Part shown: positions 4,717 through 19,502 of the stretch, piece after piece
Layout: the number at the start of each line of letters is the position of its first letter
Numbering within the stretch: the first letter of the stretch is position 1
Origin: an uncultured Gammaproteobacteria bacterium
GTDB taxonomy: Bacteria > Actinomycetota > Acidimicrobiia > Spongiisociales > SHLN01
Assembly (NCBI GenBank): GCA_964195905.1
Contig: CAXMQV010000128.1
Span: 459-64,458 of the forward strand
Direction: 5' to 3'
DNA: 64,000 bases
Position numbers and translations under genes: made by a program
The notes under the pieces: model-generated
The model's database searches: none
Told to the model about the DNA's origin: nothing
What the model saw: only the letters and a program-made list of their open reading frames with translations

Positions 4717-5711
4717 GGAAGCGCCGACCGCACCAATCGGTCGAACAATTCATTGTTCGGCACTCCCGTTGCCTCCCACAGCATCGGGAACATCGACCGC
4801 GATGTACAACCTGGCATCGTGTTCAACTCGTTGATTAGGAATCCGCGGCCACCCTCCTCGTAGAAGAAATCGACGCGTGCCAGCCCGCGCACGCCAAGCA
4901 CTTCGAAAGCCCTCCCGGCCAGATTTCGAACGGTCTCGGACTCCTCCTCAGTGAGCGGTGCCGGCACGAGTAGCCCGGTCGCCTCATCGGCGTACTTGGC
5001 GTCGTAGTCGTACCACCCGACAGGGACGATCTCTCCGGGGACGGAGGTGGCCGGCCCGTCGAGTACGGCTACCTCGATCTCCCGGGCGTTGACTCCTTGT
5101 TCGACAACGGCTTTGTCGCCGTATTTGAAGGCAATCGCCATCGCATCGGAAAGCTCGAATTCTTCATTCACCTTCGTGATCCCGACCGAGGACCCGAGGG
5201 AGGCCGGTTTCACAAATAAGGGCAGGCCGAGCTTCTCGATCAGGCTGATGTCGACCTCGGGGCCGTACGCATCGAGGGACACGGCCACCGAGGCCGTCAT
5301 GGGGAGACCGGCCTGGGCCAGGAGTCGATTGGCCACGTCCTTGTCCATGGCAGCCGCTGAGGCCAGCACCCCGGCGCCCACGTAGGGAATGCCGACCACT
5401 TCGAACAGGCCCTGGATAGTCCCGTCCTCACCAAACGGGCCGTGCAGCACCGGGAACACGACGTCGAAGTGAAGTTCGGCCGCTCCGTGCATCACCGACC
5501 CATCCGGAACGGAGAATGAGACCGGATCCCCGGCGGCCACGAGCGGTCGGGAGGCATCCTCTACGAGGTGCCACCCCCCGGCGGCGTCGATTCCGACGAG
5601 GGTGACGTCATGGCCGGTTTCGATCAACGATTCGGCGACGGTTGCCGCCGACTTGCAAGAAACCTCATGTTCAGCAGATCTTCCACCGAAAAGGACTAGT
5701 ACTGCAGGCAT
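4713..5711 (-). CDS. ddl: D-alanine--D-alanine ligase
   Basis: 332 aa, VLFGGRSAEHEVSCKSA.., ..VLHGPFGEDGTIQGLFE.., ..INELNTMPG.. are classic Ddl motifs. Confidence 0.95.
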   Translation of the reverse strand: MPAVLVLFGGRSAEHEVSCKSAATVAESLIETGHDVTLVGIDAAGGWHLVEDASRPLVAAGDPVSFSVPDGSVMHGAAELHFDVVFPVLHGPFGEDGTIQGLFEVVGIPYVGAGVLASAAAMDKDVANRLLAQAGLPMTASVAVSLDAYGPEVDISLIEKLGLPLFVKPASLGSSVGITKVNEEFELSDAMAIAFKYGDKAVVEQGVNAREIEVAVLDGPATSVPGEIVPVGWYDYDAKYADEATGLLVPAPLTEEESETVRNLAGRAFEVLGVRGLARVDFFYEEGGRGFLINELNTMPGCTSRSMFPMLWEATGVPNNELFDRLVRSALP

Positions 5712-5737
5712 GAAGTGACATTACCGGTTGGGACGGG

Positions 5738-8551
5738 ATGGATAACAACATCTACAACGAGATGTCGAACTTGCCTCCGAAAGGACGCGGCCGGCGCCGG
5801 GACAGGGCGTCCCGCAAGCAGGGCCCAAATACCCGCCAAGAGGCGGAAGAGTCTTCGACCAGCCAACCCCCGGTGCCGATCGCGGTCGCTGTGCCGCAGA
5901 GTCGTGATCTGAATCTGCCTACTCGAACAACCATTCTCCACCCGCCCGAGGACCCCCTTCCGGCAGACGGCCAGCTAGCCGCCAGCATCGAGCATTTGCG
6001 ACGGCGCTCGGCCTTCCGACCCGACGGGTCGGTTTCGGCCTCGCCCGAGCCACCGACGGCGGCAGCCGCCCCTCCCGAGGCACTGGCCGAAGCCTCACCA
6101 GGCGGGAGCGAGCCGAACTCGCGACCGTCGCGACAGGATCGAAAGGCTGCCCGCCACACCGCGAACAACCAAGGGCGGGAAGCCAAGACACAGGCCGCCA
6201 CAGACAGAGCAGCGGACAAAGCGTCCAAGCAAACCGAGGCGGCCGTCGAACGAACCGAACGGCCGCGCCGGTTCATGCGCACCCCGAAGGCGCCGGCTCC
6301 GGCGGCTCCACCCTCGCCGCCAATGCAATCCGAACGTCTCGGCCGCAAGGCCGAAAGGCTGGCGCGGCGCCAGCGGATCAAAGAGGCCTCAGAGACCGTC
6401 GCCACCCAGCGACGCGAAGGCAAGGAGCGAGTCTCCGAGGCCGAACAGAAGTCCAGGTCCAGTGAGTATTTGAGCACCAAGATCCCACCAGGCGATTGGA
6501 ACCGGAGGGAGTCCCGCCGCCACCTCAAGGCGGCCAAACAGGAAGCCACCGCCGAGGCCGCCGCGGTCAAGGCAGAGCAAGCGGCTCTCTTGGCCACAGC
6601 CAGGGAGCGGCGCACCGCCGAGAAAGGTGCTCCGCGACGCCTCGCCAGGATCGGCCGAGCTCATCTGGCCGACGCCCGCGTACGATCCATCCGGCTCGGG
6701 CTGGCCGGCAGCTGGTTCGGCCTGGCGGTGTTTGCGTGGCTGGCATGGGATACCGGCCACATCGATGAGTTCGCCTACTGGATCCCACTGGGAGCCGGGG
6801 CAGCCGGCATGCTCATCCTCACGGTCATGCCATGGAAGAAGATCAGCGGGCGACCCATCACTTCGGTGCTCGTGTTCCTGTGGCTCGGGTTGCTCATGGG
6901 TGGGATTGCGGCCACCGCTCCGCTCCACGAAACCACGATGGGCATCTTCATCGCCACCGTCTGGATCCTCCTCTATGCCGGGGTTCTCCTCCCACTGGTG
7001 GGCTTCGCCTTCTCGGCCAGCCTGGCGATCACGGTGTTCGCGGTATCGGTCGAGATGGGCTCGGTGGCCATCGACACCGTCGACTTCGCTCTCTATGTGA
7101 CCGGGCTGGCCATGACCACCATCATTGTGGGAATCACTGTCCACGAGCTCCGATCGCAGGCGATCCATACTGCCAGGCGCCTCGCCGACCTCGATACCCA
7201 GGGTGACGCACTCAGGCGGCGTGAGAGCGAGTTGATGGCACTCTACGAGGTCTCACGAACGATCGGGGTGGGCGAAGACATTCGAGAGGTCCTCCCCGAG
7301 CTCGTTGCCCGCACAGCCGGATACATCGGGGCCAAGGTCGGTCTTGTCATACTTCACAAACCTGAAGATGACGAGCTCATCGCGCTCTCCCCTCTGTGGG
7401 TGGCCGGCCAGGCTCTCGAGGCGGAGGGATATCGCTTCGCCATCGACGGCGACTCGACCGCGGCCTCGGTCTTCTCGTCGGGAGCCACCTACCTGCGCAA
7501 CGATGTGACCGAAGTGAATATCGCCCACGACCAGCTCCTCGCCGACCTCGGAGTGACCCGAGTGGCGGCCGTGCCCCTCCAGGTCGAGGGCAAAACGATC
7601 GGGGTTCTCCTTGTGGCAGACAAGGCGACCGACTTCACCGACGAGGACGCTGCCGCTCTCGAACTCCTGTCGGCCCCGGCCGGCCTGGTCCTCGACCACC
7701 TCTCCCGGTACGAGGAAGCCCAGGAGACAGGGCGCCGAATGAGCGAAGTAGCCCAGCTGAAATCCGACTTCGTGTCCGTCGTCAGCCACGAGCTGCGCAC
7801 ACCCTTGACGTCGGTGATCGGCGCCCTCTCCACGTTGTCGCGCCCGGAGCTCGCTCCCGACAATCCCGTGGCGGCCAGCCTCCTCGAGTCGGCATCCAAT
7901 CAGGCCAACCGATTGAAGACACTCATCGAGGACCTACTGACGGTTTCGAAGATCGACAACCAGGCCCTGCCGATCCGGCTCGAGTCCATTGATCTGGGCG
8001 GTCTCATCACCCGCCTGATCGGGCGAATCCCCACCTGGGGCGAGCATGTTGACATCGAGCTCTCGCCCTTGCTGCCGGCGGTCGCGATCGACCCCGATCA
8101 CCTCGAACGGATCATCACCAACCTGGTCGACAACGCCCGCAAATACGCCAGCGAGTCGCGTATCGAATTGACCGCCCGCGCCGTCGATGACGAGGTGTGG
8201 GTGTCGGTCATAGACCACGGTGAAGGCATCCCGTATGAGTACGAAGACACGATTTTCGAACGCTTCACTCAGATCGAACGCCCCGACACCCGGTTCAAGG
8301 GCGGCACCGGCCTTGGCCTGAATATCGTGAAAGACCTGACCGAAGCCATGCGCGGTCGGGTCTGGCTCGAGGCCACACCGGGCGGCGGAGCCACGTTCAG
8401 CATCGCCTTCCCCCGCAGCGACGAAGCAATCACGCCGAGCGTCGAGGTCGGGTCGGGGATGCTACTCGTCGACCCCAGCCGCGATCGCGTGGAAGCCCCC
8501 ATCAACATGGACGATCTCCCCGGAAGTGGCGGGAGCCCAATCGCTGAATAG
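5738..8551 (+). CDS. Sensor histidine kinase (TM region, GAF, HisKA, HATPase_c) with a long basic N-terminal extension
   Basis: H-box SDFVSVVSHELRTPLTS, N-box NLVDNARKY, G-boxes DHGEGI and GGTGLGLNIV. Multiple TM spans at about aa 330-480. The first ~330 aa are Arg/Lys/Ala/Glu-rich, and the start codon is uncertain. Confidence 0.85.
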   Translation: MDNNIYNEMSNLPPKGRGRRRDRASRKQGPNTRQEAEESSTSQPPVPIAVAVPQSRDLNLPTRTTILHPPEDPLPADGQLAASIEHLRRRSAFRPDGSVSASPEPPTAAAAPPEALAEASPGGSEPNSRPSRQDRKAARHTANNQGREAKTQAATDRAADKASKQTEAAVERTERPRRFMRTPKAPAPAAPPSPPMQSERLGRKAERLARRQRIKEASETVATQRREGKERVSEAEQKSRSSEYLSTKIPPGDWNRRESRRHLKAAKQEATAEAAAVKAEQAALLATARERRTAEKGAPRRLARIGRAHLADARVRSIRLGLAGSWFGLAVFAWLAWDTGHIDEFAYWIPLGAGAAGMLILTVMPWKKISGRPITSVLVFLWLGLLMGGIAATAPLHETTMGIFIATVWILLYAGVLLPLVGFAFSASLAITVFAVSVEMGSVAIDTVDFALYVTGLAMTTIIVGITVHELRSQAIHTARRLADLDTQGDALRRRESELMALYEVSRTIGVGEDIREVLPELVARTAGYIGAKVGLVILHKPEDDELIALSPLWVAGQALEAEGYRFAIDGDSTAASVFSSGATYLRNDVTEVNIAHDQLLADLGVTRVAAVPLQVEGKTIGVLLVADKATDFTDEDAAALELLSAPAGLVLDHLSRYEEAQETGRRMSEVAQLKSDFVSVVSHELRTPLTSVIGALSTLSRPELAPDNPVAASLLESASNQANRLKTLIEDLLTVSKIDNQALPIRLESIDLGGLITRLIGRIPTWGEHVDIELSPLLPAVAIDPDHLERIITNLVDNARKYASESRIELTARAVDDEVWVSVIDHGEGIPYEYEDTIFERFTQIERPDTRFKGGTGLGLNIVKDLTEAMRGRVWLEATPGGGATFSIAFPRSDEAITPSVEVGSGMLLVDPSRDRVEAPINMDDLPGSGGSPIAE

Positions 8552-15336: not shown

Positions 15337-16085
15337 GCCCGGATCTCATTCCGGTGCTCGGCGGCCTGGTGTCGCAGCGTTGCCACAACAGATTCGGCAA
15401 TGGCACCAATCGGCATCCGTCCGGTATTCCAGATCGCGTCGTATCGCGTTGGATCGTCGATGTCGACCCGGAAGTGAGCTTTCAACAGGCGCGCCCGGGA
15501 CGAGTCGATTCTGCGAGCTTCGTCGCGGGCGGAGCGCTCCTCGAACCCGTAGTACTCCATGACCCTCCGGATCCGGGTTTCCTCAGGAGCGATGAGGCGA
15601 AGCGAAAGACCCTGGCCCATGTCCCTCGTGACTTCCGAGCCGGCCCGCCCGACGATGATGCTCTTGCCGATGGAAGCCACTGCTGTCACTACCTGAAATA
15701 CGTGCAGCATCAACATGTCCTGGTCGATGCTCGAGCCGAGCATCTGACGGAGGAACTCGTCGGTCCTGGTGCGGTACTCCTCGGCGACCAGCGACGCCAT
15801 CGACTTCGAGAAGGTGGGGTTCTCGGCAACGATCTCGCAGAGCCGGCGGTCGAAGACCTGCCACCCCCCGAAGACTTGCGCGTCGTCCTGGCGAGCAAAC
15901 ACCTCGAGCAGCGTCTCGGCCAGCAGGTGCCCTCCCGCCCCTGCTTGTCGCGAGATGGTGATGAACGGCCGGGCGCCTGGCTCCGAACCGTGGTCCTCTG
16001 AACGCAGCTCGGCCGCGTGAGCTGCCAGATAGCCCTCCATGGCCGTCAGCCGGTTCGTGCCGCGTGCTTTTGTGGTCTTGTCCAT
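15333..16085 (-). CDS. Cytidylate-kinase-like family protein (Cytidylate_kin2 type, degenerate P-loop)
   Basis: ..PFITISRQAGAGGHLLAETL.., ..IIVGRAGSEV.., ..LRLIAPEETRIRRVMEYYG..ARRIDSSRARLLKAHF.. fit the family pattern. Start taken at the ATG at 16085; a TTG at 16094 is possible. Confidence 0.8.
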   Translation of the reverse strand: MDKTTKARGTNRLTAMEGYLAAHAAELRSEDHGSEPGARPFITISRQAGAGGHLLAETLLEVFARQDDAQVFGGWQVFDRRLCEIVAENPTFSKSMASLVAEEYRTRTDEFLRQMLGSSIDQDMLMLHVFQVVTAVASIGKSIIVGRAGSEVTRDMGQGLSLRLIAPEETRIRRVMEYYGFEERSARDEARRIDSSRARLLKAHFRVDIDDPTRYDAIWNTGRMPIGAIAESVVATLRHQAAEHRNEIRA

Positions 16086-16559
16086 CAACCACAAGCATCG
16101 GTCTCTTGGTGCCGGATGCGCCAGGGGCAGGTGGCACCATCCGAAGGGCCGAAGCTACTTTGGTTGAAAAGCCAAAATCGTCCGAGGACCCAAGATCCCA
16201 GACCCCAGACCCCAGACCAGCGGGCCACGGCAACCCCCCGGCAACCCGAAGGCGTTGCCGGGGTCTTGGAACAGTCGGACGCGGAAAACCCCGGTTGAGC
16301 GTCGGCCGAAACCTTCGCCCCTCCGGGGCTTCCGTCCGAAGCGGCCCGAGGGCTGCTCCGATTCCTCTCCGTTTGGCCGAAGCCTCCCGGTGAGGGACCT
16401 CTCTGGTCGGCCGAAACCTTCCTTCGAGGTAGTGGCTTCGCCAGCGTCCGAGTGAGCCCGAAGGCCCTCTTGGCCGTTCCCCTTGCGGGGCGTCCGACGA
16501 AGCCGCTCCTCCGACCCTTGCGAGCCTTCGGAGCGTGTGTTGAGGTTTCCCTCAGCACT
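16086..16559 (-). ncRNA. Candidate long structured 5' leader of the cytidylate-kinase-like operon
   Basis: Lies between the predicted promoter (16566-16594) and the start codon, with no credible ORF. Minus-strand hairpins ggcUUCGgcc (16375-16384), gccUUCGggc (within 16456-16467) and ccccGCAAgggg (16479-16490). Contains a (GTCTGGG)3 array. Confidence 0.3.
16190..16217. repeat. Heptamer tandem array: ccaagat cccagac x3
   Basis: Four in-phase 7-nt units read directly from the sequence. Confidence 0.9.
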
Positions 16560-16565
16560 TGAAAG

Positions 16566-16594
16566 AATCTACAGGGCCGTCATCGTTGCGTCAA
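16566..16594 (-). promoter_or_regulatory. Putative sigma-A-type promoter TTGACG-N17-TAGATT (minus strand)
   Basis: Reverse complement of 16561-16600 reads ctgagtTTGACGcaacgatgacggccctgTAGATTctttc. It sits in an AT-rich island in otherwise GC-rich DNA. Confidence 0.5.
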
Positions 16595-16610
16595 ACTCAG
16601 GGGCTACCTA

Positions 16611-16639
16611 GTTTTCGCGCTCTAGAAGTAGTTTTCGCG
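16611..16639 (-). promoter_or_regulatory. Two direct repeats CGCGAAAAC (minus-strand reading), 20-nt spacing, 16 nt upstream of the -35
   Basis: Plus strand shows GTTTTCGCG at 16611-16619 and 16631-16639. The same motif and spacing occur at 18472-18524. Confidence 0.45.
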
Positions 16640-16703
16640 GGGACATCGGAACTCTGGACTCGATGCCGCAATCGACACCCGTCGACTCCTACTCTCAGGA
16701 CCG

Positions 16704-17591
16704 ATGGGCGATTTCTTGAGCGATCCGGAACACCAGTGGCAGGTTCGAATGCTTGCCACGCTAGCGGTCCTGATTGCCACCATCATCGTCCGGCTCTTCG
16801 TCCTGAGGATGGTGCGCCGTCGGGTCGTAGACACCGAGATCTGGTACCGCACCCAGAAGGTAACGAGCTACGCGGGTACATTCATCGTCCTCCTTGTCAC
16901 GAGCTTCGTGTGGCTCCGGGTCAGCAATGTCGGCGCTTGGATCGGCGTGGCGTCTGCCGGTATCGCAATCGCACTGGCCGACGTTCTCCGGAATTTCGTC
17001 GGTCTCAGCTACATCCTGATCCGCCGTCCCTTCAAGATCGGCGATCGGATCGAAATCGACGGCCAAGCAGGCGACGTCGTCGACGTGCGGGCGCAGCGGT
17101 TCTCGCTGCTCGAGATAAAGGGATGGGTCGACGCCGACCAGTCGACCGGCCGCATCATTCAGATCCCGAATGGTCTGCTATTCAGCAAGCCGCTCGCCAA
17201 TTACACCGAAGGCTTCCCCTACATCTGGCACGAGATCCCGATGCTCGTTACCTTTGAGTCCGACTGGAAGCGGGCCGAAGCACTGATGACCGAGGCGCTC
17301 GGCGAGCACGCTCCCAGCATGGCGTCGGAGGAGGCCCGCAAGGCCATCCGGGAGGCGGCCACCGAGTATCGGATCCGCTACACCCATCTCACGCCCACAA
17401 CGTATGTGACTGTCAAAGACAGCGGCGTGATGATCACCGGCCGCGCCATCATTCCGGTCAGGTCGCGCCGCCACGTTGACTCCACCATCTGGCGGTCGCT
17501 GTTAGAGAAGCTCGACGCCGAGCCGAGTGTGGAGCTCGCGTATCCGACGGTACGGACGTATTTGCCGGAGCTGAGGGTCACGCGACAGTAG
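16704..17591 (+). CDS. Mechanosensitive ion channel family protein (MscS-like)
   Basis: 295 aa, three N-terminal TM spans, then ..RRPFKIGDRIEIDGQAGDVVDVRAQRFSLLE..GRIIQIPNGLLFSKPLANYT.., the MscS beta-domain signature. Confidence 0.9.
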   Translation: MGDFLSDPEHQWQVRMLATLAVLIATIIVRLFVLRMVRRRVVDTEIWYRTQKVTSYAGTFIVLLVTSFVWLRVSNVGAWIGVASAGIAIALADVLRNFVGLSYILIRRPFKIGDRIEIDGQAGDVVDVRAQRFSLLEIKGWVDADQSTGRIIQIPNGLLFSKPLANYTEGFPYIWHEIPMLVTFESDWKRAEALMTEALGEHAPSMASEEARKAIREAATEYRIRYTHLTPTTYVTVKDSGVMITGRAIIPVRSRRHVDSTIWRSLLEKLDAEPSVELAYPTVRTYLPELRVTRQ

Positions 17592-17640
17592 GCATCCGGC
17601 ATCCGGCATCCGGCATCCGGCATCCGGCATCCGGCATCCG
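17592..17640. repeat. Heptamer tandem array (GCATCCG)x7
   Basis: Seven perfect units beginning one nt after the mscS stop codon. Confidence 0.95.
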
Positions 17641-18420
17641 GCAAGCATCGTTACCCGGTTACCCGAAGAAGACCACCATCGAGGCGTGTCGCGCTGGGAA
17701 GGGGTTTCTCTGGACCTGGCGCAGGCGGCGCCGGTCGTCCCACGGTCGGCTGTCCTGCGGTAGCAGTCGACTTTTCAGCCAGTGGCGCGCCGGATCCAGG
17801 GCTCGACCGAAAAGTGACAGAGGGCATCGCGCGGAAAATCCCGAGTGAGCCTCGGCCGTGACCAAAACCCTCTCGGGATGTTTCCGCTGCCGGGCGGCTC
17901 CCTTGCGGGTGCCGTGCCGGCGGTTTCCGCCCGAGGTCGGTGCCCGAAGGCCCGTGTCCCTTGCGGCGCCGAAGCGTTTTTGGCGCTTCAGCGTTCCAGC
18001 GTCGCTGGCCCGACGACCTTGCGGTCATCGAGTGCCGGTCCGAAGCCGCGCCCTTGCGGGTCTGGCCCTCGCCGACTCTCATCCTCCGCCGAAGCGGTGA
18101 ACGAGTCGTGGTCTCCCGGCGACTATCTGAGCCTTGTGAGCCCATCCAGCCGGCCCGATCGGGGCCCGGGTGGCCACTCCCCACGATCGCGAATCGTAGG
18201 GCCCGGTCCGGTTTTGACACCTTTCCAGGACTCCGGTCCGGCTTTTAGACCTTCCCAGAGATCCGGTTGGGCTTTCGCCCTTCCAGTCCAGTCGGGCTGT
18301 TACACCCTTCTGGGGTCCGGCCGGGCTTTCGCCCTTCCGGGGTTCTCACAAACCTTTCGATCTGCAAGCCTGCCGTCCACTTTCGCTTCCGGCCGGGTCG
18401 TTCCGGTTGCCCGGGCGACA
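17641..18420 (-). ncRNA. Candidate large structured non-coding RNA (no ORF, own promoter)
   Basis: Downstream of TTGACG-N17-TACATT. At least eight GC-clamped hairpins have UUCG, GCAA or GAAA loops on the minus strand only (17900-09, 17942-51, 17967-76, 18015-26, 18051-60, 18086-97, 18269-80, 18324-35). Confidence 0.3.
18203..18346. repeat. Degenerate ~30-nt tandem repeat, 5 copies (CCGGYCSGG-YTTT..CCTTYCCAG..)
   Basis: Copies at 18203-32, 18233-62, 18263-92, 18293-316 (24 nt) and 18317-46. No unique spacers lie between the copies. Confidence 0.7.
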
Positions 18421-18426
18421 AAGACA

Positions 18427-18455
18427 AATGTACGGGCGAACCTCCGCACCGTCAA
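18427..18455 (-). promoter_or_regulatory. Putative sigma-A-type promoter TTGACG-N17-TACATT (minus strand)
   Basis: Reverse complement of 18421-18460 reads ctcatTTGACGgtgcggaggttcgcccgTACATTtgtctt. Confidence 0.5.
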
Positions 18456-18471
18456 ATGAGATTGGTAGTTA

Positions 18472-18524
18472 GTTTTCGCGCCATAGGAGCATTTTTCGCG
18501 GAAGCGCCGCAGACGGTTTTCGCG
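18472..18524 (-). promoter_or_regulatory. Three direct repeats CGCGAAAA(C/A) (minus-strand reading), 20- and 24-nt spacing, 16 nt upstream of the -35
   Basis: Plus strand shows GTTTTCGCG 18472-80, TTTTTCGCG 18492-500 and GTTTTCGCG 18516-24. Confidence 0.45.
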
Positions 18525-18540
18525 GTTCGCGGAGGGGTTG

Positions 18541-18645
18541 GTTCCCCGTTCCCCGTTGCCAGGTGACAGTTGACCGTTGACCGTTGCCAGGTGACCGGTG
18601 ACAGTTGACCGGTGACAGTTGACCGGTGACAGTTGACCGTTGACC
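18541..18645. repeat. Mosaic heptamer array, 15 in-phase units (GTTCCCC, GTTGCCA, GGTGACA, GTTGACC, GGTGACC)
   Basis: Read directly. All 15 units keep a 7-nt register across 105 nt. Confidence 0.95.
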
Positions 18646-18689
18646 TCCGAATTACATTCGTGTCACTCTCGTCCCGTATAGTGCCGGAT

Positions 18690-19502
18690 ATGGATCGAGT
18701 GTCACCAAGCCGGCTAAGCGACTTCAAGCAGTGCCCCCAGCTGTTCAAGTTCCGATCGATCGATCGACTGCTCGAACCGGCCACAATCTTTCAAGCTCGC
18801 GGCACCACCGCCCACCTGGCTCTTCAGCGCCTTTACGGCCTGGACGCCACCGATCGCACGCCCGAGCGTCTCTACGACCTGTTCCGGGAAGCTTGGGCTG
18901 AGGTCCGCGACGACGAGTATCCGGACATGTTCGAGACCGTCGAGGAGGAGCGCGCCTGGGGTATCGAGAGCATGGAGCTGCTCGCCAACTACTTCGCGGT
19001 GGAGGACCCCCGGGCCATCACCCCGGTGGGGTGCGAGCTCGACTTGCTCGAGGAAGTCAACACCGTGCGGGTGCGCGGGATTCTCGATCGCATCGATGAG
19101 AACGAGAGCGGCGACCTGGTGGTCACCGACTACAAGACCGGCAAGGCTCCACCCGAGCGTTACGCACTCCCCGCCTTCTTCGCACTCAAGATCTACGCCC
19201 TGCTGACCCGCAAGCACCTCGAGCGGACTCCGGTGCAGCTCCGGTTGCTCTACCTGAACGGCCCAACGCTGTACTCCCTCGACGTCGACGAGCAGCAACT
19301 CGACGCCATGGAGCGCCAGGTGCTTGCCCTGTGGGATGCCATTCAGCGGGCCGAGCAGCGCCAGTCCTATCCCCCCCGTCAGTCGAGGCTCTGTGACTGG
19401 TGCTCGTTCCAGGAAATCTGCCCTGCTTTCGGCGGCACCGGCGAGCCGACCGCAGACATGAAGCGTCGGCCCGAGCAGGTGCCCGAGCCGACTCCGGCCT
19501 AG
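18690..19502 (+). CDS. PD-(D/E)XK nuclease, RecB/Cas4-like with Fe-S cysteine cluster
   Basis: MDRVSPSRLSDFKQCPQLFKF.. (N-terminal Cys), ..RGILDRID..LVVTDYKTGK.. (nuclease core), C-terminal CDWCSFQEICPAF (3 Cys). Start trimmed to the ATG at 18690, outside the heptamer array. Confidence 0.8.
   Translation: MDRVSPSRLSDFKQCPQLFKFRSIDRLLEPATIFQARGTTAHLALQRLYGLDATDRTPERLYDLFREAWAEVRDDEYPDMFETVEEERAWGIESMELLANYFAVEDPRAITPVGCELDLLEEVNTVRVRGILDRIDENESGDLVVTDYKTGKAPPERYALPAFFALKIYALLTRKHLERTPVQLRLLYLNGPTLYSLDVDEQQLDAMERQVLALWDAIQRAEQRQSYPPRQSRLCDWCSFQEICPAFGGTGEPTADMKRRPEQVPEPTPA

Follow-up and report, generated by a model that had tools for sequence, protein, structure and literature searches.

The promoter module that occurs twice in the 64,000-nucleotide stretch of DNA analyzed here (the window) is probably the common, class-specific promoter of a lineage-restricted family of structured noncoding RNAs in Acidimicrobiia, served by a putative upstream activator. 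The cassette comprises two, sometimes three, CGCGAAA(AC) repeats 20 nt apart, a 16-nt gap, a TTGACN −35 element, 17–18 nt, and a TAnnnT −10 element; it continues with an RNA body of 140–770 nt made up of stable hairpins, and then a long 3′ hairpin, common to the family, with a U-run. Conservation and structure mark the transcribed regions, which do not code for protein. While the first-pass annotation took the module for the promoter of a protein operon, both promoters in fact precede conserved, structured noncoding RNAs, here termed RNA-A and RNA-B, each of which closes with a terminator-like hairpin. The elements of the two promoters, at locus A and locus B, are as follows, with position numbers that assume a −10 hexamer placed at −12 to −7.

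16631–16639, minus strand: locus A distal CGCGAAAAC, about −80 to −72 of the predicted start; an exact match, whose CGCGAAA is invariant among orthologs and whose spacer varies
16611–16619, minus strand: locus A proximal CGCGAAAAC, about −60 to −52, 16 nt upstream of the −35 element; an exact match
16589–16594, minus strand: locus A −35 element TTGACG, from the promoter scan; invariant in orthologs
16566–16571, minus strand: locus A −10 element TAGATT, after a 17-nt spacer, from the promoter scan
18516–18524, minus strand: locus B most distal (third) CGCGAAAAC, about −104 to −96, 24 nt from the middle copy
18492–18500, minus strand: locus B middle copy, CGCGAAAAA, about −80 to −72, with one mismatch; 20 nt from the proximal copy and aligned with the distal copy of locus A
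18472–18480, minus strand: locus B proximal CGCGAAAAC, 16 nt upstream of the −35 element
18450–18455, minus strand: locus B −35 element TTGACG, from the promoter scan
18427–18432, minus strand: locus B −10 element TACATT, after a 17-nt spacer, from the promoter scan

The tandem direct repeats noticed at first reading are confirmed at both loci. Exactly four exact matches to CGCGAAAAC occur in the 64-kb window, all on the minus strand and all at loci A and B, against a shuffle mean of 0.59; none of 100 shuffles reached four. When one mismatch to the 9-mer is tolerated, there is no enrichment in the window (13 found, 16.8 expected), and the signal resides in the exact copies and their arrangement. 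Two details of the original description needed amendment. Three copies had been listed at locus B, the outer two of which are exact and the middle one of which is not, and a common tail TA..TA.CC had been proposed after the proximal repeat, where TA..TA.C holds at both loci and the final C does not (locus B reads TAACTACCA). A third repeat copy, at a variable distance, is also present in two related contigs, L079 and L062.

The geometry linking repeats to core promoter is equally specific. A 32-nt composite, GCGCGAAAACTANNTANCNNNNNNNTTTGACG (GCGCGAAAACTA..TA.C, seven free nucleotides, then TTTGACG), is found only at 16589–16620 and 18450–18481, with zero occurrences expected. A sigma-70-type scan of 16100–18700 returned two promoters only, TTGACG-17-TAGATT (16594 to 16566) and TTGACG-17-TACATT (18455 to 18427), where the shuffle mean was 0.4; both loci possess the TTGACA-like and TATAAT-like hexamers, 16–18 nt apart, of a sigma-70/sigma-A promoter. 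Together these searches bear out the reported order of repeat, 16 nt, TTGACG, 17 nt, and TAnATT at both loci. When the loci are aligned, repeats, −35, and −10 elements are equidistant and the bases between them differ. The 20-nt period falls a little under two turns of B-DNA (21 bp), and direct repeats about two helical turns apart would fit a putative DNA-binding factor that acts with RNA polymerase. Every repeat also has an A4 run, the proximal one at about −56 to −53, and the interval from −51 to −36 is variable, contains G+C, and is not A/T-rich. The window as a whole is that of a G+C-rich genome (G+C about 62–70%).

Both modules lie in divergent intergenic regions, adjoining an MscS gene and a PDDEXK_1 gene. 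Related contigs (labelled L002 and so forth) were reached through MscS homologs, which place the window in Acidimicrobiia. In these contigs the order Peptidase_M3 / MscS / ... / PDDEXK_1 is kept and both modules stand at equivalent places; two more distant MscS loci (55–56% identity) have neither the synteny nor an RNA within 20 kb. Downstream of locus A the next plausible ORF, about 470 nt away, encodes a Cytidylate_kin2 protein, and downstream of locus B no credible gene is found up to the convergent MscS gene. What follows the promoters is, in each case, a structured RNA:

16283–16558, minus strand: RNA-A, noncoding and structured, about 275 nt, from ortholog alignment and consensus fold
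17834–18419, minus strand: RNA-B, noncoding and structured, about 585 nt, from ortholog alignment and consensus fold

We infer the start of RNA-A from the position of the −10 element and the onset of conservation, and its end from the U-run; the start and end given for the RNA-B transcript are likewise inferred. Orthologs of locus A have invariant repeats, −35, and −10 elements, with variable spacers, followed by about 240–310 nt of strong conservation that closes with CCCCGG...CCGGGGTTTTCCGCG, where similarity ends. The RNAalifold consensus fold of RNA-A has 93 pairs, 13 of them with compensatory double changes. In L002, L005, L007, and L009, RNA-A lies between convergent Peptidase_M3 and divergent MscS genes with no gene downstream, which marks it as a standalone RNA rather than a leader. 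In the window, transcription of RNA-A may read through into the gene for the cytidylate-kinase-like protein. Within the RNA is a module of about 34 nt, CCUCAC-CGG-gAGGCUUCGGCC-aAC-GG-AGAGG, built around GGCUUCGGCC and present in one to three tandem copies (window 16370–16440); L002 has one extra copy (5640–5760), and L007 and L020 have one fewer.

Orthologs of locus B likewise keep the repeats, −35, and −10 elements unchanged between divergent spacers, and conservation carries on for about 500–640 nt. The RNA-B orthologs span 452–644 nt, a range that arises because internal hairpin modules vary in copy number, and close with CCCGAG...CTCGGGATTTTCCGCG, conservation ending directly after the U-run. 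Here the RNAalifold consensus has 158 pairs, 35 of them compensatory. Repeat units measure about 27–57 nt and some are hairpins with UGUAAMA loops; the recurring loops look like a repeated binding motif. Tandem hairpin modules of RNA-B, CYGGAAGGGCGAAAGCCC..CCGG and GGGUGUAACAGCCC / GGUGUCAAAACC (window 18180–18345), differ in copy number in L012, L077, and L078. Variable numbers of hairpin modules in the RNA bodies suggest that these RNAs may act by binding or sequestering a protein.

We also considered whether the RNA-B region might code for protein (ORF 17651–18220 and others) and rejected this: stop-free stretches differ among orthologs, with none conserved, lengths vary by indels of RNA modules, and 35 pairs are compensatory. 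Public gene calls and mechanical ORF lists set protein ORFs over the RNA genes, for example a 196-aa "gene" on RNA-A in L090 (9252–9842), and in the window ORFs of 189 aa (17651–18220) and 157 aa (16085–16558). ORFs called over the RNA genes are very likely spurious.

The two RNAs differ along their bodies and end alike, in elements located as follows.

16280–16331, minus strand: RNA-A 3′ hairpin, CCCCGG...CCGGGG with a UUUUCCGCG tail; 66.3 bits with covariance model R1; fold −42.5 kcal/mol, tail paired to the 5′ flank
17830–17881, minus strand: RNA-B 3′ hairpin, CCCGAG...CUCGGG with a AUUUUCCGCG tail; 64.4 bits with R1; fold −42.3 kcal/mol, GCGGAAA paired to UUUUCCGC

The 3′ element common to all members reads CCCC(G/A)(G/A)GAGGG, a small hairpin (often GGCUUCGGCC), CUC.CUCGGGG, and a U-run. 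Both copies in the window combine a G+C-rich hairpin with an immediate U-run, as intrinsic terminators do (CCCCGG...CCGGGG-UUUU and CCCGAG...CUCGGG-AUUUU, about −42 kcal/mol), and by their sequence are terminator-like. A simple terminator scanner missed both because the hairpin is long and nested. Their tails, UUUUCCGCG, UUUCUCGCG, or UUUUUUGCGC, resemble the reverse complement of the upstream repeat. The tail pairs with the 5′ flank of the hairpin, with covariation between classes (GCGGAAA/UUUUCCGC, GAGAG/UUCUC, and GCGCAAAAA/UUUUUUGCGC), and this pairing accounts for its conservation; it would fit a symmetric, possibly bidirectional, terminator. That the tail (GTTTTCCGCG or GTTTCTCGCG) is an inverted upstream repeat for the same factor was also considered, and explains it less well than pairing with the flank that covaries between classes, even if a link may remain. 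A variant 3′ hairpin, CCCCGAGAGGGCGGACAUCUCUUCGGAGAU...CCCGGGGUUUUUGCGCG, ends a large conserved RNA of about 680–730 nt found after the module in two assemblies (L018 6130–6908, minus strand, and L023 5210–6039, minus strand), which has no match at the Rfam gathering score.

How far the arrangement extends was clear from scans of larger collections. A genome-collection scan that allowed 8–16 nt between repeats and 12–20 nt to TTTGAC matched 49 stretches. In all 19 from Acidimicrobiia/Actinomycetota the gaps are exactly 12 and 16 nt, which is to say repeat starts 20 nt apart and a proximal 9-mer 16 nt from TTGAC; two of the 19 belong to a bin labelled "Gammaproteobacteria" and are near-identical to Acidimicrobiia contigs. 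In the approximately 30 matches from other phyla the gaps are scattered; a single match, from a Clostridia bin, coincides by chance. The proposal of selection on geometry is upheld by the 19 lineage matches, and the spacing is kept by orthologous loci and also by unrelated RNA genes within the lineage. A metagenome scan in which only the proximal repeat, −35, and −10 elements were required gave 29 matches, and a second CGCGAAA stands at exactly the 20-nt period in 18 of them. The remainder divides into two family members with a degenerate distal copy and nine unrelated matches, none with a second copy. Viral contigs scanned for the module contained no instance. Each lineage match precedes noncoding, hairpin-rich sequence, very different in length and in sequence from one to another.

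The CGCGAAA core was built into most search patterns and its invariance is partly ascertainment; the non-circular evidence is the spacing and the co-occurrence of module and 3′ hairpin. The latter can be approached from the opposite end of the genes. Covariance model R1, built from 16 of the 3′ elements, finds only the two RNA ends in the window and 39 3′ hairpins in the fetched loci, the window's two included. Seven of the R1-found 3′ ends had been selected by neither promoter scan and have enough upstream sequence. For each of these seven genes, the upstream 900 nt contain exactly two CGCGAAA at a distance of 20 nt (21 in a single case), where the background is 0.19 per strand-kb. In six, the proximal copy stands exactly 16 nt from a −35/−10 pair; in the remaining one, L036b, repeats, 16-nt position, and −10 element are retained and the −35 is poor. 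Altogether the module is present at 37 of the 39 R1-defined 3′ hairpins, a count that includes L036b on a hand check, as the automated match took the promoter of a neighboring gene; of the two exceptions, one lacks upstream sequence and one has a degenerate distal copy. Across the 37 family promoters the spacer between −35 and −10 is 17 or 18 nt, mostly 17, and the TAnnnT −10 is kept. On clustering, the RNA bodies fall into at least 14 classes distinct in sequence, of about 140–770 nt.

Some members occur side by side. Tandem same-strand pairs of RNA genes, each gene with its own module and 3′ hairpin, are present at L036 4815–5674, L062 296–1044, L019 6681–7500, L056 590–1925, and L076 1746–3985. 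L036, at the position orthologous to RNA-B, has a short RNA of about 160 nt and then a second, longer one.

We propose that a sigma-A promoter drives each RNA gene and that a putative sequence-specific factor would bind the repeats, centered at about −56 and −76 (plus about −100 at locus B). The bound factor would contact RNA polymerase from upstream, in class I style, to activate transcription, and all family members would be co-regulated as one regulon. A sequence-specific upstream factor is favored because CGCG is invariant, the distance to an intact −35 element is fixed, and the period is about two helical turns. Across the loci, no regulator gene was found to be consistently adjacent to the module.

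The A-runs invite a reading that dispenses with a dedicated factor, whereby the repeats form an UP-like element or phased A-tracts and contact with alpha-CTD, or DNA bending, makes the promoters constitutively strong. Each repeat does contain an A4 run, phased at about two turns with the proximal one within reach of alpha-CTD, and stable-RNA promoters of other bacteria use upstream A/T elements. But CGCG forms part of what is invariant and is needed for neither bending nor alpha-CTD contact; its constancy beside the A-run points to recognition of a specific sequence rather than to bending by A-tracts alone. Moreover, the UP element site, −51 to −36, varies and is not rich in A/T, little curvature would come from two or three A4 runs at 20 bp, and, in the loci recovered by the strict pattern scans, no match adjoins an rRNA or tRNA gene, so this is no general strong-promoter element. 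An UP-like or bent-DNA role is less likely than an upstream factor, and we consider it rather unlikely overall. A repressor is a poorer prospect still. Promoter-adjacent direct repeats can be repressor sites, and one candidate, put forward in the first-pass annotation, was autoregulation by a 157-aa protein encoded downstream of locus A, where a same-strand pair of genes for 253-aa and 157-aa proteins follows RNA-A in the window, L012, and L078. Yet only those three loci have the pair: it was not found at L002, L005, L007, L009, L020, L025, L063, or L071, which keep the module and RNA-A, nor with any other RNA class. A strong hairpin and U-run stand between RNA-A and the gene pair, and the HTH/DUF2384-like label attached to the 157-aa protein found no backing, with no Pfam family matched at E≤0.01. 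Nor do the sites overlap the −35, −10, or +1 positions, as simple repression would usually have them do; the word "operator" implies repression, and activation is the more typical role of sites centered near −56 and −76 with an intact −35 element downstream. On these grounds we judge repression, whether by this protein or another, improbable.

More remote is the prospect that the module is a duplication relic of paralogous RNA genes, its repeats functionless, or that the repeats regulate the divergent protein genes (MscS and PD-(D/E)XK nuclease); we give this pair of readings very little credence. The tandem RNA gene pairs demonstrate that duplication occurs, and the placement of both window modules in divergent intergenic regions by MscS and PDDEXK_1 would suit control of the neighbors. 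Against a relic, neither the RNA bodies nor the promoter spacers are still recognizably similar between classes, while the 7–9-nt repeats and the exact 20- and 16-nt distances are kept in 36 of 37, which needs purifying selection. Control of the divergent genes sits poorly with flanking genes that differ by class and with modules that in some cases follow another RNA gene instead. The upstream activator remains our preferred reading of the module.

Known systems offer partial precedents for such an activator. In several small RNA (sRNA) regulons the members share an activator site: RsmX/Y/Z have the GacA upstream activating sequence, the csRNAs have CiaR direct repeats, and the Qrr RNAs depend on LuxO. 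As in the family described here, several noncoding RNA genes have one short upstream element in common, set at a constant distance from the core promoter, and RNAs of the Rsm/Csr type, like RNA-A and RNA-B, have repeated hairpin modules whose number varies between species. The comparison also brings out differences. GacA recognizes a palindrome and CiaR a TTTAAG-N5-TTTAAG repeat abutting the −10 element, whereas the element here is a direct repeat of 20-nt period; motif, lineage (Acidimicrobiia), and RNAs are unrelated, and the RNAs here are much larger (up to about 770 nt) with a common 3′ hairpin.

In terms of promoter architecture, the closest likeness is to class I sigma-70 promoters (CRP at −61.5) and to AraC/XylS direct repeats (period about 21 bp), which likewise have an intact −35/−10 pair and sites upstream at a fixed distance. 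The putative binding sites here lie upstream of an intact −35 element in fixed helical phase, as in class I, with 16 nt to the −35 and the second copy 20 nt farther; the centers at about −56 and −76, the 16-nt gap, and the recognition sequence all differ from CRP and AraC/XylS. UP elements and phased A-tracts share with this module an element with an A-run upstream of the −35 in front of structured RNA genes that look abundant. An UP element is an A/T-rich block that adjoins the −35 on its upstream side, at about −40 to −60; the conserved element here is instead CGCGAAAAC at −60 to −52, with a CGCGAAA core, and −40 to −51 is variable. SARP-type promoters have heptamer direct repeats of 11- or 22-bp period, the last overlapping the −35 element and 8 bp from the −10, whereas the period here is 20 nt and a 16-nt gap separates the proximal repeat from the intact −35 downstream of it. 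OmpR/PhoB boxes, direct repeats of 10–11-bp period, differ as well from a period of 20 nt (21 once) with no conserved intervening half-site.

Among RNA families, 6S, Ms1, raiA, GOLLD, ROOL, HEARO, and OLE are, like these, standalone and highly structured RNAs of 150–750 nt with their own promoter and terminator. RNA-A strings hairpins together, whereas 6S is one hairpin with a bubble at its center. Neither is RNA-A the antitoxin RNA of a type III toxin–antitoxin system, which would combine a ToxI-like array, a leaky terminator, and a downstream gene for a toxin endoribonuclease: it has one to three tandem modules of about 34 nt, and is followed by no gene in most loci and by Cytidylate_kin2 otherwise. 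Ms1 was rejected on its differing synteny—HAD-IB hydrolase / oxidoreductase (PMC9130861)—and because no covariance-model match was obtained; the Ms1 survey makes no mention of Acidimicrobiia (PMC9130861). Searches of Rfam 15 at the gathering threshold gave zero matches in the window and zero in 13 related loci, and nothing credible emerged at gathering and permissive E-values from the window and 19 related loci. For the two RNA genes of the window there was no Rfam match with E≤10, and below-threshold matches were at chance level only (Transposase-2, 16 bits; mir-4872, 30 bits). ARAGORN found no tRNA or tmRNA. A full-text literature search for the motif and 3′ hairpin sequences returned only E2F sites, primers, and unrelated matches, and a general search on Acidimicrobiia noncoding RNA returned nothing relevant. 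The motif, the strict geometry, the common 3′ hairpin, and above all the RNA family appear to be undescribed, although regulation of this kind is familiar.

Acidimicrobiia abound in soils, sediments, water-treatment systems, and the ocean but, to our knowledge, are almost unstudied genetically. If the family is true, it adds a new set of unexplained RNAs, some matching the biggest known bacterial noncoding RNAs in size. With the promoter module (50 nt) and the 3′ hairpin model (52 nt), members can be listed in any genome or metagenome, and the short invariant DNA repeat is a ready bait in the search for a regulator. Public gene calls, meanwhile, put very likely spurious protein ORFs on these RNA genes. 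A more ambitious proposal, which we offer tentatively and think rather less than even in its chances, is that this is an undescribed gene class—at least 14 sequence classes, several above 500 nt, with one dedicated promoter and 3′ hairpin—in which a single factor would switch the whole set on or off and the RNAs would act as multivalent protein sponges or scaffolds via their repeated hairpins (in RNA-B, the UGUAAMA loops). If such a class, with its dedicated promoter and 3′ hairpin, were to hold true, bacteria would have an equivalent of the promoters reserved for one class of genes, as in eukaryotic snRNA genes.

Several further observations concern the surroundings of these genes. Contigs L039 and L055, from bin 07C-BC-St04_bin.27, labelled Gammaproteobacteria, carry RNA-A-type and RNA-B-type genes near-identical to those of Acidimicrobiia L020 and L045; both contigs are probably mis-binned. 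On the far side of locus B, a TATAGT hexamer resembling a −10 element precedes the likely ATG of the PD-(D/E)XK nuclease gene by about 7 nt (window 18646–18700, plus strand), and the segment AATTACATTCGTGTCACTCTCGTCCCGTATAGTGCCGGATATG upstream of this gene is kept in distant loci (window, L005, L009, L036, L045, and L060). This spacing suggests that the nuclease mRNA, divergent from RNA-B, may be leaderless or near-leaderless.

Tandem arrays of 7-nt period are scattered through the window, with a unit that differs each time (for example, CCGTTGA ×13, GGCATCC ×7.6, and GACCCCA ×4.6), at the following positions.

18553–18645, 17591–17643, and 16187–16218 of the window: arrays of 7-nt period; also at 1294, 1600, 4332, 9325, 9872, 11429, 51784, 59408, and 63682

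Period 7 is the commonest tandem-repeat class, accounting for 30 of 85 TRF clusters in 281 kb (window and related loci). The arrays lying by both RNA genes were considered as a part of the module and rejected; several flank RNA genes but such arrays are present genome-wide. Three 7-nt units make 21 bp, or two helical turns.
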